The notes: generated by a model from the letters alone, not told the origin. A stretch of DNA of 64,000 nt from an uncultured Nitrososphaerota archaeon (GCA_963703285.1 OY969807.1:1792001-1856000), one strand, 5' to 3'. Numbered from the stretch's first letter, positions 8,884-15,387 are shown. Translations and numbers: made by a program.

Positions 8884-11604
8884 TCACAGTGGCTGGAACG
8901 TCCTCGGCGGCTGCGTGAAGTCGAACGCCTCCGACATGTCGTTCGCAGCGGCGTCCCTCGTGCTCAGGGGCGCGAGGCCGTAGCGCGTCTCGATGAACTT
9001 CAAGATCGACGTGTGGTCGTTGACGACGCTGTCGACGAAGCCCTTCTTTGCATAGGGGGAGACGACCAGGCAGCCGACGCGGAAGCCGTACCCGTATTTG
9101 TCGACCTGCGGCGGCGGGACGTGGTCGAAGAATCCCCCGAAGCAGTCCCAGGTCACGAAGGCCGCGACAGAGTTCCAGTACCTGCTGCTTCCGAGGCCGT
9201 TCAGGATCTCCTCTGCGACGTAGTTCTCTCCAGTCTGTATGTCAGCCGGAGGGTGCTCGTCCGAAGCCGCCGCGCCTATCACCCACGACACCTGCGGCAG
9301 CGTCCCGTTCTGGATGTCGGTGACTATCTGCTGAGGGGGGACGAACTTGGCCTTGGCGCCTGGCGTCTTCTGAACGTACTCGAAGTTCTGGAACCACGTC
9401 GTGGTACTGTACACCTTCCAGGAGACGCCGGCGCCGTCGAGCTCCTCGAATATGGGCGGGAAGGTGATCGTGGCCGGGGGGTTGTCGTCTATGATGCCCC
9501 CGCACGTACCTGCGACGAGGGAGAGGTGGTTGGGGAGGCTCTCGCTCATCACGGAAGTGAAGTAGGAGTCGCAGAGGACGTACTGCTCCGCCGCGTTCCA
9601 GTAGTGGGGTATGTCGCCCGAGTCGTAATAGCCCATCGTCTCCTTGCTGCCCTCCGAGTAGATGAAGCCGTCCATGCTGCCGCCGTCGTAGTCCTTGTGC
9701 GCCGAGCTCCAGGTGTGGTTCATGTCGACCGGGGTGAGGTTCGTGTCGTGGAACGGCGCGACGCAGCTCTTTGACCCGGCCTTCGTCGGAAGGCAGTAGG
9801 TCTTCCCGCGGGTCCCGTTGCCGCCGGGGAACGTCCCGAAGTAGTTGTCGAAGGTGTGGTTCTCCTGAAAGACGACAACGATGTTCTCTATGGGAGACGT
9901 CGCACCGCCCGCGGCCAGGGAGAGGCGCTGGGCGGCGCCCGGTTTGAATATCGGGGCCTCCGACCTGGGTCTGGACCGCGCCGCCCCGCCCCCGATGAGG
10001 GCGAGCAGCTTCACCCCGTCGGGGCTCCCGAAACCGGTGCAGGCGTCCCAGCCTGGCCGCGCACTGTAGGCGCCGTTGCTACCTGAGACGATGTCGCGAC
10101 AGTCGCCCGCCGGGTCGAGGGGCTGGGAGTAGAGGAGAGGGTTCAGGTAGCCCGCCACCTTGCCGCCCGTGGCGCTCGCCTGCTGGTTGATCAAGCCGAC
10201 GAGACCGCTCCACAACGGAGCCACCGCGCTGGTGCCGCCCACGTGAATCTGCTTCCCGTCGGCGCGCACGACGTAGCCTGTATCGGGGTCGGCGTCCCCG
10301 GCCACATCCGGTACCCCGCGCCCGGTCCGCCCTCCCGGGTTTGCAGAGGGCGGGACGTTCACGCCGCTCTGCCAGGTGGGGAGGGGAAAGACGTCGCTCA
10401 CACCTCCGCCCGTGGCGCCCCCCGATGGGAGGTCGTTCCATACCACCTCGCTCGCGATGGCGGTGCCGCTCTTCGCTTCCTGCATCTTCGTCCCACCGCA
10501 GCCGAGCACGTACTGGGAGGAGGCGGGATAGTCCACGTGAGCGAGGCCGTCGCTCACACCGTCGGATGAGCCGTCGTCACCTGATGCGGCCAGCACCGTC
10601 ACGCCGAGCATCGCCGCCTCCTGGAACACCTGGTCGAGGGCCTGGATGCCCTGCTGCGTCCAGGTCGACTCGGCGTCGCCCCAGCTTATCGATATGACCG
10701 AGGGTCTGTGCAGAGTGTCATGGATGGCGGCGCTCACGGCGTCGACGAACCCCGCGTCGGTGTTCGGGGCGAAATAGACGTAGATCTGCGCCTTGGGAGC
10801 GACGCTACCGATGACCTCGATGTCGAGCATCACCTCCGTGTCGGGACCGTTGGGGTCCCCCGTCGGGGCGTTTAGCGCCCCATCAACCGAGATTGCGAGG
10901 ACGCTCGGCGCCGTGATCCCGAGCTTCGAGAAGTAGGTCTGGAGGTCGCTGGCGACATACCCTCCTCCGAGCTCGACGACGGCTATCGACTGTCCGCTCC
11001 CATCCAGGTTCGAGGGGAAGCTGTAGAGGCCTGCGACCTTCGGAGGAGTATACGCCGTCCCCCCGGGGGCCTGCCTGATTCGCACGTGGGACCGCCCCTG
11101 CGGCCGGTTGTCCAGACCCAGGACGGCCAGCACCAGGGGGGCGACGTCGGCTGGCAGGTATATCGGCCCCGTCCGTCCACGGAAGACCCCCTTCGGGTGT
11201 CGGTAGCGCTCCAGCTTGACGCCGAAGGCCCTTCCCAACTGCGCCAGCGTCCCCGACAGGACGACGGACCGCCTCGCGGCGCTCTCTTCCACCATCACCA
11301 ATCCATATTCGCGCGCGAATGACTCCACCTTCGCGAGGTCTTCTTGAGTGGCCCCGTGCTGCACCGCGAACTCCCCGCGCGTCGGATAGTTGCGGTCTCT
11401 GGGGAGGCGGATGCTCATCTCCTCCAGCGCCGCCGCCCTCGCGCGCGAGGACGAGGAGCGGGGTCGAAGTACCACCGTCACCCGCGCAATCTCGTCGGGG
11501 TCAATCTTGCCCGAGACTCGCGCTCCAGGGAGGGGCGCACGATCGCTTCCAGCAAGGGGTGTTCTCTGTCCGTGTGGAGCCATGCGTTCCCGGATTGCTC
11601 TCAT
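8884..11604 (-). CDS. S53 (kumamolisin/sedolisin) peptidase fused to a phosphoesterase/phospholipase C domain
   Basis: Pro-domain; EVMLD (Glu/Asp), SGDDG, GGTSA (Ser) and GWDACTGFGSP; then IVVVFQENHTFDNYFG, DEHP, DHVPPP and DHTSILKFIE. Confidence 0.9.
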   Translation of the reverse strand: MRAIRERMAPHGQRTPLAGSDRAPLPGARVSGKIDPDEIARVTVVLRPRSSSSRARAAALEEMSIRLPRDRNYPTRGEFAVQHGATQEDLAKVESFAREYGLVMVEESAARRSVVLSGTLAQLGRAFGVKLERYRHPKGVFRGRTGPIYLPADVAPLVLAVLGLDNRPQGRSHVRIRQAPGGTAYTPPKVAGLYSFPSNLDGSGQSIAVVELGGGYVASDLQTYFSKLGITAPSVLAISVDGALNAPTGDPNGPDTEVMLDIEVIGSVAPKAQIYVYFAPNTDAGFVDAVSAAIHDTLHRPSVISISWGDAESTWTQQGIQALDQVFQEAAMLGVTVLAASGDDGSSDGVSDGLAHVDYPASSQYVLGCGGTKMQEAKSGTAIASEVVWNDLPSGGATGGGVSDVFPLPTWQSGVNVPPSANPGGRTGRGVPDVAGDADPDTGYVVRADGKQIHVGGTSAVAPLWSGLVGLINQQASATGGKVAGYLNPLLYSQPLDPAGDCRDIVSGSNGAYSARPGWDACTGFGSPDGVKLLALIGGGAARSRPRSEAPIFKPGAAQRLSLAAGGATSPIENIVVVFQENHTFDNYFGTFPGGNGTRGKTYCLPTKAGSKSCVAPFHDTNLTPVDMNHTWSSAHKDYDGGSMDGFIYSEGSKETMGYYDSGDIPHYWNAAEQYVLCDSYFTSVMSESLPNHLSLVAGTCGGIIDDNPPATITFPPIFEELDGAGVSWKVYSTTTWFQNFEYVQKTPGAKAKFVPPQQIVTDIQNGTLPQVSWVIGAAASDEHPPADIQTGENYVAEEILNGLGSSRYWNSVAAFVTWDCFGGFFDHVPPPQVDKYGYGFRVGCLVVSPYAKKGFVDSVVNDHTSILKFIETRYGLAPLSTRDAAANDMSEAFDFTQPPRTFQPL

Positions 11605-12951: not shown

Positions 12952-13485
12952 CTAGTAGAAGACGGGCTCCTTCTTGGCCGCCTTCCCGCGTTCCCCGGGT
13001 GGTTTGTACTTCCAGTCCAGTATGCGGCCCACATCCCTCTCCGTCCTCGCGGGGATCAGCCGCGGGGGTTCGTCCCGCGTCCAGATCCCCTGAGAGTTTA
13101 TGATCAGCCCCTTGCTCCGCGCCTTGATGGTCATGCCGATGGTGTGACCCTTTGGACCTGTGGCCCACATCAGCGTCACGCCCCAGGAGTCCACGCTCGG
13201 GCAGATGAAGAGGTTGACCTGGACGCCCCTGTAGGCGAAGTTGGAGATGACCTCGCCAAAGGATACCACCTCTCCACCCATCTTCCCGACGCGCTCCTTG
13301 ACCGCCTCGCGCCACGAACCGAAGTCGCGTCCCTTCGGGACGACGGCGAAGTCGACGTCGTGGACCACTGGCTCGTTCCTCCGGAGGCTGCCGGCAATCT
13401 CGGCTCTCGAGTAGAGGTCCTTCGTGCGCTCGAGGAAGTCCTCCGCGACCTCCCGAGCGACCTTCGGGTCGAGGTCCTTCTTCAT
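12952..13485 (-). CDS. polX: minimal family X DNA polymerase (palm + C-terminal domain only, ASFV PolX-like)
   Basis: IAGSLRR, HDVD, QVNLF (third Asp position), ATGP, ARSKGLIINSQGI, TERDV..LDWKYKPPGER; 177 aa. Confidence 0.85.
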   Translation of the reverse strand: MKKDLDPKVAREVAEDFLERTKDLYSRAEIAGSLRRNEPVVHDVDFAVVPKGRDFGSWREAVKERVGKMGGEVVSFGEVISNFAYRGVQVNLFICPSVDSWGVTLMWATGPKGHTIGMTIKARSKGLIINSQGIWTRDEPPRLIPARTERDVGRILDWKYKPPGERGKAAKKEPVFY

Positions 13486-13501
13486 CTTGAAGCATCCGGC
13501 C

Positions 13502-14341
13502 CTATCTTATCTGGGAGAGGAGGCACTCCTGGGGTGTCTTGTCGTGCCTAATCCTCAGGATGAACGGCTCGCGCAGCTTCACGTCCTGGGTGACCTCCTG
13601 GAACCGCACCTCCACCACCGACCCGATTTTGACCTGTCTAGGATCCACGCTCTCGACGAAGGCCCCGACCTTCCCCAGGTCCACGCGCTCCCCGTTCTCC
13701 CCGTAGACGCCGACGTACCAGGACCTCGGCACCCCGGTCCGCTTCATCTCCTGCGTCTCCTCGTAGCCGACTATGAAGCAGTCGACCGTGTCGAACCGCT
13801 TCAGCTTGAGCCACGAGTTGGGCTGTCCGTACCTCGACGCCGGGTTCTTGACGATCAGACCCTCGCCGCCCTCCTTCACGACCTCCTCCATGAAGTCGAG
13901 TATCTCCTTCGAGCTCTTGGCGGTCCTGTATTCGACCTCCAAGTCCGTCCCCCTGAGGATCTCCCTCAGGATCTTCTTCCTCTCCGGGAGGAGCATCTCC
14001 CTGACGTCGCGGTCGTCCACCTGCAGTATGTCGAAGAGAAAGAGGCCCTCATCGGCCACGTACTCTCCGTCTAGGATCATCTGGTACGGGGCGTGGGTGA
14101 ACTCGGGGACGCGGGCGAAGACCTTCGGGCTGCTCTTCGGCGTGAACAGCATCCCGTGCTTGCTGGAGATCACCAGCTTCTCGCCGCTCTTGAAGAGGAA
14201 GATCCTGATCCCGTCCAGCTTCCGCTCGCAGATGGCGGGAAGTGGGTTCTTGAGCAGCCAGGTTGCCAGGTCGAGCTTGACGGCCTTGGCGTAGTTCTCG
14301 AGGACGAAGTTCTGGAGGACGTCGCTCAGGGCACTCGCCAG
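13502..14341 (-). CDS. lig: minimal ATP-dependent DNA ligase (~279 aa; start uncertain)
   Basis: Motif I ERKLDG lies upstream of the listed ORF in the same frame; III LDGE, IIIa FLFDIL, IV EGLIVK, V WLKLKR, OB fold, VI LREPFILRIRHDK. Confidence 0.9.
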   Translation of the reverse strand: MASALSDVLQNFVLENYAKAVKLDLATWLLKNPLPAICERKLDGIRIFLFKSGEKLVISSKHGMLFTPKSSPKVFARVPEFTHAPYQMILDGEYVADEGLFLFDILQVDDRDVREMLLPERKKILREILRGTDLEVEYRTAKSSKEILDFMEEVVKEGGEGLIVKNPASRYGQPNSWLKLKRFDTVDCFIVGYEETQEMKRTGVPRSWYVGVYGENGERVDLGKVGAFVESVDPRQVKIGSVVEVRFQEVTQDVKLREPFILRIRHDKTPQECLLSQIR

Positions 14342-14356
14342 GGCAAGGTTTCCAGC

Positions 14357-15202
14357 CTACTTCGCAATCGCGACCTTGGGCTTCTTCTTGCGGGCGACGG
14401 GCACCGCAGGGAGCTGCTCCGACTCGCGGTCCTCCTGTAGCGCCCAGGCGTCGTCTAGCAGGAGTATCCCCTCGCTGAGCCCCATCAGCAACCAGAGTCT
14501 GCCGTCCTTCCTCTCGTAGGGGTAGACCACGCTGGTGTAGAACTGGTATCCCCTCCCCCAGGAGAAGAAGGAGACGAGGGCGGTGTCCTTCTGGAGCAGG
14601 TAGCGGGCCAGCTGCTTTACCCTCGAGCCCGTCTCCTTCACCTTCTTGTCCGTGTCGGGGCCGAGCTGGTATACCTCCTTGAACTTGTACTCCGAGAGCC
14701 TCTCGAGGGGGACGAAGCCATCGGGCTCGACCTCGATCTTGGTGGTCCTGTCGAAGGGCTCGATCTCCTCCTCTCCCTGCTTGTCCACTATCTGGCCCAG
14801 CGGAACTTCCACCCACTTTCCGGACATCTCCAGTTCGTTCTTGAGGAAGTATCTCTTCTCCGTCTTCACCGTGATCTGGTACTTTCCGTCGTACCTCACG
14901 TGCTTCCTCGCCTCGTCCCTGGAGACCTCCTGCATCTCGAGGCGTTCGCCGTTGGGTCCCTCCTTGTACCTGTAGACCACAGGCACCTCCCGGCTTACGA
15001 CCTCCCTCCCCGACTTCGTGTCTATCTTCACGTAGCTCACGGGCTGGAGGTTGCCGTGCGCCTTGGCTGCCCTTAGGTGGTACTCGACCGCTCCCAGACC
15101 CAGCGTCGGCAGGTTCACGCTAAGAACCCCCCTCCACGAGGCCCTCGGACCCGCGGCGCTGTCGGCCTGCTTCTCTACCTCGGAGAAGATGTTCTTGGCC
15201 AT
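14357..15202 (-). CDS. ku: divergent Ku-like DNA end-binding protein
   Basis: Colinear matches to the prokaryotic Ku pattern: PRASWRG, VSYVKIDTKSG, EVPLGQIV, TTKIEV..FVPLERL..YKFKEVYQLGPD, QLARYLLQKDTALVSFF; basic tail; first gene before a ligase. Confidence 0.7.
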   Translation of the reverse strand: MAKNIFSEVEKQADSAAGPRASWRGVLSVNLPTLGLGAVEYHLRAAKAHGNLQPVSYVKIDTKSGREVVSREVPVVYRYKEGPNGERLEMQEVSRDEARKHVRYDGKYQITVKTEKRYFLKNELEMSGKWVEVPLGQIVDKQGEEEIEPFDRTTKIEVEPDGFVPLERLSEYKFKEVYQLGPDTDKKVKETGSRVKQLARYLLQKDTALVSFFSWGRGYQFYTSVVYPYERKDGRLWLLMGLSEGILLLDDAWALQEDRESEQLPAVPVARKKKPKVAIAK

Positions 15203-15387
15203 CTCGGATTCGTCAAGATAGGCATCAGCCCTTTATAATCGTGCTCGTATCTAGGAGGCTGAAGAAGCCACCACTAGAATACTCTGATGGGGCCCGGCGA
15301 CGCGGGCGCCGGGCGCGGTGGCCGAGGGTGGTCTATCTCCTCAACCCGTTCTCGATTTATAAGAGACCACGTGGCTCCATCCGCCCG

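Follow-up and report, generated by a model that had tools for sequence, protein, structure and literature searches.

A putative Ku-dependent end-joining operon with a non-canonical mini PolX in one family of Nitrososphaerales

We report three closely spaced, co-directional minus-strand open reading frames (ORFs), coding for a Ku-like protein, a minimal ATP-dependent DNA ligase and a small family X polymerase-like protein (mini PolX), which probably form a Ku-dependent end-joining operon of one Nitrososphaerales family. Ku and the ligase would be its core, and mini PolX a lineage-specific, non-canonical accessory. The trio lies at positions 12952-15202 of a stretch of 64,000 nucleotides from an uncultured soil archaeon of the Nitrososphaerota (GCA_963703285.1 OY969807.1:1792001-1856000), called the window below; the source genome is a single 2.25-Mb contig with a completeness rated at 96%. 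End joining that depends on Ku is regarded as rare among archaea, and the known cases follow the bacterial plan of Ku, ligase, archaeo-eukaryotic primase (AEP) and phosphoesterase. A sequence-only reading of the window had described three packed minus-strand genes behind a TATA-type box, and both the ORFs and the box were found where it had put them:

15232-15239, minus strand: TATA-like box ATTATAAA, about 33 nt before the Ku ATG, read directly from the DNA
15202-14357, minus strand: Ku-like gene, 281 aa, ATG start, TAG stop
14357-14359, minus strand: TAG stop of Ku; the ligase frame runs on in the same frame past this TAG
13502-14329, minus strand: minimal ATP-dependent ligase (adenylation and OB domains only), 275 aa if the CTG at 14329-14327 is the start
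12952-13485, minus strand: mini PolX gene, 177 aa, palm and C-terminal (Pfam 'thumb') subdomain only
13213-13215, minus strand: codon AAC for Asn91 of mini PolX, at the position of the third catalytic Asp (D243 of Thermus PolX, numbering read off the alignment)

The spacer between the Ku stop and the homologous ligase start is 27 nt, and 16 nt separate the ligase stop from the PolX ATG. The ATTATAAA box is probably the promoter of a near-leaderless operon transcript; AT-rich boxes at comparable spacing precede most of the orthologous Ku genes printed, as judged by eye and uncounted. Since the genes on either side are on the plus strand, the trio is a stand-alone transcription unit.

The 281-aa protein had been called colinear with the Ku core, and this was borne out by structure prediction. 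When its AlphaFold2 model (pLDDT 77.2, pTM 0.64) was compared with the PDB using Foldseek, all listed matches were Ku chains (Ku80, Ku70; human, yeast, M. tuberculosis, B. subtilis), with E values of 1.6e-8 to 1e-6, a probability of 1.00 and TM scores of 0.32-0.49, the latter being low because a monomer model was compared with ring-forming chains. The matches identify the fold as the Ku core, a beta-barrel with bridge and pillar. Sequence profiles point the same way at the level of the family: among 29 aligned members, 17 are recognised by Pfam Ku (PF02735) at E<=0.01, the best with 3.4e-8, and a profile made from the family alignment retrieves M. tuberculosis Ku (E=2.1e-6) over a conserved R-x-I-E-x-x-F-V-P ... 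Y-x-L block. Some orthologues carry the automatic name 'Ku protein' in NCBI records. In an in silico homodimer prediction, the window Ku reached an ipSAE of 0.60, against 0.00 for the best control, with a symmetric interface of about 260 contacts, a partner pLDDT of at least 76 and at least 78% of the contacts agreeing between runs. Of 30 solved homo-pairs, 20 reach the mark used, as does one of 23 single chains; because Ku dimers are already solved, the pass shows likeness more than proof. A Ku homodimer is in this sense supported in silico. Judged by profiles and models, the 281-aa protein is a Ku, divergent and in a lineage of its own. An exhaustive search of representative sequences with the window Ku returned 61 clusters only; the family is therefore small.

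The C-terminus of Ku is a conserved Lys-rich tail, K-P-K-V-x-I-x-K, a candidate peptide for docking to the ligase or to DNA. The tail (window positions 14360-14401), in the form K-P-K-V-x-I/L-S/A-K, is retained even in relatives of 35-50% identity.

A canonical Ku exists in the same order. Of 64 genomes sampled from a sister family (f4), 39 have it (G620 among them is flagged as unpublished), which fits the acquisition of bacterial non-homologous end joining (NHEJ) by ammonia-oxidising Nitrososphaerales, as given in the available text of Abby et al. 2020 (PMC7554672). The f4 proteins fit Pfam Ku at ~1e-45, whereas the window family does so at ~1e-6 or not at all. A BLASTP comparison of the window Ku with a canonical Ku of the order gave E=2.6, and a profile comparison likewise gave no significant similarity. 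By these comparisons, the Ku of the window's family is a different lineage from the canonical Ku of f4.

As proposed by the sequence-only reading, the product of the second gene is a minimal ATP-dependent ligase: it has motifs I, III, IIIa, IV, V and VI but lacks accessory domains. The motifs read K-L-D-G-I-R, L-D-G-E, F-D, E-G-L-I-V-K, W-L-K-L-K and R-H-D-K. In an alignment of 41 sequences the key residues of each are conserved, and adenylation and OB domains account for the protein. In loci L017, L035 and L037, motif I is K-Y-E-G, not K-x-D-G. The best NCBIfam match is the NHEJ ligase domain TIGR02779, at 106.2 bits versus a cut-off of 227.75; TIGR02776 gave 78.3 bits versus 373.2, and PHROG 114 was matched at E=3.4e-30. 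Among solved structures, its best relatives are replicative ligases of archaea and the ligase domain of M. tuberculosis LigD.

The start of this gene required closer attention. No ATG, GTG or TTG is present in the ligase frame before motif I, the first such codon coming 16 codons after it. The part upstream is nevertheless coding, because its inclusion raises the PF01068 score from 62.9 to 85.9 bits. Ligases in 40 orthologous loci begin with M/V/L-S-D-x-L-P-x-Y-V, where the window has CTG-AGC-GAC, and on this basis the start was placed at the CTG at 14329-14327, which is likely the start used. The length proposed at first, about 279 aa, corresponds to an earlier CTG at 14341 and gives way to 275 aa by homology. 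Read-through of the TAG, giving a Ku-ligase fusion, was rejected since the orthologues have their own M/V/L start, with varied frames and spacers; no fused Ku-ligase frame occurs in the 40 orthologous loci, in which no search aimed at fused forms was made. A sequencing error at the CTG or the TAG was considered as well: at the Ku/ligase junction, contigs of two public soil runs (X2 and X4, from one study) are identical to the window, an agreement that is not independent proof, these runs being possibly the assembly's own data. At plus-strand position 13396, contigs of two soil runs have G for A, a synonymous change in codon Ile30 of PolX.

We examined how far the trio is conserved. A pattern scan for relatives of the window Ku, with one genome per species, gave 43 loci, all of which are titled as Nitrososphaerales or Thaumarchaeota metagenome-assembled genomes. 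Ku, ligase and PolX follow each other in this order and on the same strand in 40 of them, a recurrence well beyond chance; in four of the 40 (L011, L026, L040, L042), 0.5-1.5 kb lie between two of the genes. Among the three loci without the full trio, L031 ends 219 nt past Ku, and in L024 and L038 Ku is not followed by a ligase. The Ku of L038 (genome G044) ends early, at residue 254, and mini PolX is found on another contig of the same genome. In L041 (5001-5849; genome G030), the Ku frame is lost at about residues 27-80, a part containing two TGA codons, and is regained after that, with ligase and PolX intact, which is either a pseudogene or a long-read assembly error. Flanking genes are common to the closest relatives only, with any match in 4 of 43 loci and the same near flanks in two. 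The trio is kept while its flanks are not, and therefore persists as a unit. Median pairwise dN/dS values were 0.11 for Ku, 0.18 for the ligase and 0.18 for PolX, about one third of the pairs having been dropped as saturated: selection on each of the three genes is purifying.

Of the 97 genomes in the window's GTDB family, 42 have Ku and 41 have mini PolX; by our tally, both are present in 38. In the three genomes with PolX only, the gene begins within about 500 bases of contig base 1. In the four with Ku only, two of the Ku loci are divergent, one Ku has no neighbours and one is a fragment.

More divergent Ku loci allowed us to separate core from accessory. All three with readable flanks have Ku and a minimal ligase, and none has PolX. 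In G004 (L057), a Ku 55% identical to that of the window is followed by a 277-aa ligase; in G183 (L056), from another family of the phylum, the ligase precedes Ku; and in metagenome locus L065, Ku and a 276-aa ligase are followed by a coiled-coil protein and by a PCNA/Rad1-like clamp. Ku and the ligase are thus the conserved core and PolX is outside it, which goes against the proposal that PolX is an integral part of the module. In L065 (2124-6160), Ku is 38% identical, the coiled-coil protein has 297 aa and the clamp protein 320 aa; a clamp beside Ku and ligase may be another accessory solution. DNA methyltransferase genes adjoin the two other divergent pairs (L056:1739-2677 and L057:4422-5402), of the types N6_Mtase and N6_N4_Mtase with an AbiEi-like N-terminus. 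Outside the window's family, one strong and one weak Ku match came from 400 sampled genomes of the phylum. Metagenome searches with two divergent Ku relatives gave one locus for P0141 and no match for P0135.

Polymerase and end-cleaning functions were then sought elsewhere in the genome. The LigD-type AEP (PF21686) is absent from it and from all 97 family genomes (0/97). A stand-alone LigD-type 3'-phosphoesterase (PE) is present about 310 kb from the operon, among transporters and a dehydrogenase subunit. The absence of a LigD-type AEP agrees with the sequence-only reading, and the presence of this PE weakens it. Of the 97 family genomes, 69 have PE: by our tally, 35 of the 42 with Ku and 34 of the 55 without it, counts that are confounded by kinship and completeness. 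Because it is common in Ku-negative genomes too, PE is not tied to the operon; given also its unrelated neighbours, we rejected it as an operon partner and retained it as a possible helper only. The genome has two further, long ATP-dependent ligases. The second of these (G000:C1:105507-106089) matches PF01068 in two frames (positions 2-163 and 164-204), which points either to a frameshift within the adenylation domain or to an indel of the assembly.

The identification of the 177-aa protein as a PolX held up, with both the palm and the C-terminal subdomain matched in fold. PF14791 is recognised at E=4.9e-10 (39.6 bits versus a cut-off of 25 bits), and no further domain was found in a Pfam scan. 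With phmmer, mini PolX aligns to residues 170-314 only of Thermus PolX (E=1.4e-9); it also aligns to Pol mu and Pol lambda, and the 174-aa Pol X of African swine fever virus (ASFV) aligns with it end to end, over residues 27-166. The AlphaFold2 model (pLDDT 89.4) superposes on Pol lambda, Thermus PolX and Pol beta with TM scores of 0.76-0.78 (on the query). The 8-kDa, helix-hairpin-helix and PHP domains are missing, and there are no fingers. Within the clade, the G-S-x-R-R motif (G32, S33, R35, R36) and the first two catalytic residues, D43 and D45, are invariant. The third catalytic Asp position is Asn91 in 41 of 41 orthologues, and His42 is fixed in place of the Gly that precedes the first Asp. 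By comparison, Asp is found at the third site in the long PolX of the same genome and in two aligned phage short PolXs. This long PolX, 580 aa and 31% identical to mini PolX, keeps G-D-x-D; its PF14791-matched frame is open over 653 codons and, by its sequence, it looks like a PolX-PHP with N-terminal domains.

The altered triad is the critical point for function. According to the available text of Prostova et al. 2022 (PMC9226535), the triad is altered in 27.5% of the PolXs of prokaryotes, such proteins as well as a single-site triad mutant lack polymerase activity, the altered-triad PolXs work through their PHP exonuclease, a domain said to be a mandatory part of PolXs from prokaryotes, and dead sites diverge into many variants. 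What speaks against a dead enzyme is that D-D-N and G-S-R-R are fixed in mini PolX and that selection on it is purifying. We read its site as a remodelled nucleotide- and metal-binding site that is still in use, neither a standard polymerase site nor a relic.

Taken together, these observations suggest the following scheme. The analysis shows the folds, motifs, linkage, purifying selection and in silico dimer, whereas DNA-end binding by Ku, the Ku-ligase partnership and all that concerns PolX activity are inferred. A Ku homodimer ring would thread onto the broken DNA end and recruit or stimulate the minimal ligase, which has no DNA-binding domain of its own and would seal the break with ATP. 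This pair would be the ancestral core of the divergent Ku family. Mini PolX would be a lineage-specific accessory always travelling with Ku, its nucleotide- and metal-binding residues kept and its His42/Asn91 site fixed. Most likely it is not a standard Mg-dependent gap-filling polymerase, and more likely it binds or aligns gaps or ends, or adds nucleotides to a limited extent in a non-canonical way. Cleaning of 3' ends could be performed by the unlinked LigD-type phosphoesterase, and gap filling, if needed, by the full-length PolX-PHP or by the replicative primase, an AEP that is reported to join breaks in another archaeon in the available text of PMC12019639.

Several points weigh against this reading. 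The window Ku itself scores below the Pfam cut-off (PF02735, E=1.1e-4, 22.6 bits for a cut-off of 25 bits), a single-sequence phmmer search against the PDB found no Ku and chance-level matches only (best NUDT5, E=0.5), and Ku is patchy even among high-quality family genomes (12 of 26), so that the operon is dispensable. The ligase has no canonical start codon here and may be poorly produced in this genome, and none of the RNA runs was listed as containing the locus. A role of PE in the pathway is a guess, the excess in Ku-positive genomes being mild. Finally, the fixed D-D-N site could mean real catalysis, which our wording of 'not a standard polymerase' would underrate. The low visibility of this Ku has a further consequence. 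The window Ku has no match in NCBIfam, a PF02735 scan of the genome gave no match, and in PHROGs neither Ku nor PolX has a family; with a sub-cut-off Pfam score and no NCBIfam match, NHEJ surveys undercount this lineage.

A bolder extension, which we put forward tentatively, is that the locus may represent a third type of prokaryotic end joining, in which an ancient, divergent pair of Ku and minimal ligase would have recruited, in one family, a virus-like mini PolX without PHP. The His42/Asn91 site would then have acquired a new family X chemistry or a structural job, for instance nucleotide-dependent end bridging, or the His-assisted, Mn-dependent addition of one or a few nucleotides.

The sequence-only reading had gone in another direction, towards a stripped-down NHEJ in which PolX takes the place of the AEP. 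In this complete three-enzyme system, mini PolX would actively fill gaps or extend ends instead of the LigD-type AEP, parallel to eukaryotic Ku, Pol lambda/mu and Lig4. The Ku-ligase-PolX unit and the absence of a LigD AEP from the genome and its 97 family members agree with it. So do the fold match to Pol lambda, Thermus PolX and Pol beta, the invariant G-S-x-R-R and first two Asp in a site that is fixed and not decaying (dN/dS 0.18), and the alignment with ASFV Pol X. That viral enzyme, made of palm and thumb only, is active. However, the universal Asn at the third catalytic position, in view of the single triad substitutions that abolish activity and the inactive natural altered-triad PolXs in the available text of PMC9226535, makes gap filling by PolX in place of the AEP doubtful; moreover, the relatives of the operon manage without PolX, and another PolX with an intact triad is encoded in the genome. 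We consider this explanation unlikely.

We also considered that the trio could be a module for short-patch base excision repair (BER) or single-strand breaks, with Ku as an apurinic/apyrimidinic (AP) or 5'-deoxyribose phosphate lyase, mini PolX acting on the 1-nt gap and the ligase sealing the nick. African swine fever virus pairs a mini Pol X with a ligase. Mini PolX shares the architecture of the viral mini PolXs, ASFV Pol X being aligned end to end, and its nearest Atlas clusters are 158-174-aa proteins, mostly viral (a lead only). Bacterial Ku proteins process abasic sites, according to the available text of PMC4245934. Asn91 is an equal problem for this gap filling, no AP endonuclease or glycosylase is present in the operon, and the PolX-free Ku-ligase core of the relatives fits end joining better, which leaves a BER module improbable.

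Least probable of all is a mobile-element or viral cassette that would protect or circularise the DNA of the element or incoming linear DNA (Gam-like) and not repair the chromosome: the patchy occurrence (42/97), the unconserved flanks, the methyltransferase genes beside two divergent Ku-ligase pairs and the short PolXs of phages are in its favour, but Ku identities of ~70-90% within the family would be in keeping with vertical descent, the adjoining ORFs showed no integrase, tRNA or repeat border, although no search for them was made, and neither 2.9 million viral contigs nor 50,697 phage records contained a relative of the window Ku. On the last result we rejected a viral or phage origin of Ku; the distant Ku relatives P0171 and P0170 had no relative in the viral contigs either.

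An end-joining operon with a Ku-ligase core and an accessory PolX, the reading we prefer, can be placed among known systems. With the bacterial Ku-LigD NHEJ of Mycobacterium, Bacillus and Pseudomonas, it shares a homodimeric (here predicted) single-domain Ku beside an ATP-dependent ligase; M. tuberculosis Ku is the nearest solved sequence relative of the Ku profile, and the ligase best fits TIGR02779. Unlike in those systems, Ku is too divergent for NCBIfam, and the ligase is free-standing, with no fused AEP or phosphoesterase, and far below LigD cut-offs, in a genome and family without a LigD-type AEP. The NHEJ of Methanocella paludicola is also archaeal and built from separate small proteins (Ku, Lig, Pol, PE), and a PE homologue exists in our genome. 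The Methanocella polymerase is an AEP according to the available texts of PMC4797286 and PMC7554672, whereas here a PolX gene is in the operon, there is no LigD-type AEP and PE is remote.

The resemblance to eukaryotic NHEJ (Ku70/80, Pol lambda/mu, Lig4), which the sequence-only reading had stressed, comes down to analogy. Nominally, both combine a Ku ring with a family X fold and an ATP-dependent ligase, and the models of Ku and PolX can be superposed on their human counterparts. On the other hand, there are no BRCT, vWA or SAP domains and no XRCC4/XLF or DNA-PKcs, PolX is without 8-kDa and helix-hairpin-helix domains and has Asn at the third catalytic position, and no specific affinity was seen, the nearest solved relatives by sequence being mycobacterial Ku and Thermus PolX.

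As for mini PolX, the altered-triad prokaryotic PolXs described in the available text of PMC9226535 also have a non-acidic triad residue and a proposed link to NHEJ. Those are full-length proteins with PHP, in contrast to mini PolX, which has no PHP, 8-kDa domain or fingers and whose triad variant is fixed, not decaying. ASFV Pol X and the phage short PolXs, like mini PolX, consist of palm and C-terminal subdomain only, in about 175 aa. The phage homologues are 25-29% identical to mini PolX; unlike it, the two aligned phage proteins keep the third Asp, and none is linked to a Ku.

The sequence-only reading knew of no description of the combination, and we found none in print: no paper joining PolX, Thaumarchaeota and end joining was found, with the reserve that the supplementary tables of PMC9226535 and PMC7554672 may bear on novelty. 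Ku as such is already known in Nitrososphaerales, as a canonical, unrelated-looking Ku, from the available text of PMC7554672. The available texts of surveys of Ku (PMC11936186, PMC7554672) list only the canonical Ku of Nitrososphaera and Nitrosocosmicus and leave PolX unmentioned, and a bioRxiv survey (10.1101/2023.09.30.560322) mentions neither PolX nor this phylum. A prokaryotic PolX-NHEJ link was previously proposed from co-occurrence and LigD neighbours, the neighbours of PolX including LigD in an Alphaproteobacteria operon and an ATP ligase in Methanomicrobia (available text of PMC9226535).

The trio is flanked on one side by genes for an ArsR-type regulator and for a small membrane protein. 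The opposite side has an unassigned 98-codon frame and a gene for a HAD hydrolase. Further along the window, a 906-aa ORF (8884-11604, minus strand) combines a pro-kumamolisin activation domain, a subtilase-type peptidase and a phosphoesterase (PF04185).

With proteins of 281, 275 and 177 residues, the operon is a very small and tractable system for asking what end joining needs at the minimum; its use as a compact end-joining tool is speculation. It is also a natural experiment on family X, in which a palm-plus-thumb protein with a fixed D-D-N site is under selection and tied to Ku. If PolX is active, this would be the first prokaryotic replacement of an AEP by a PolX in NHEJ. If it is inactive, the PolX scaffold would have a non-catalytic role at DNA ends, which would bear on the scaffolding roles proposed for Pol lambda and Pol mu. 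Should the tentative third type of prokaryotic end joining prove true, the trio would be the first prokaryotic Ku-PolX operon, and an independent, convergent invention of the eukaryotic Ku-PolX-ligase arrangement.

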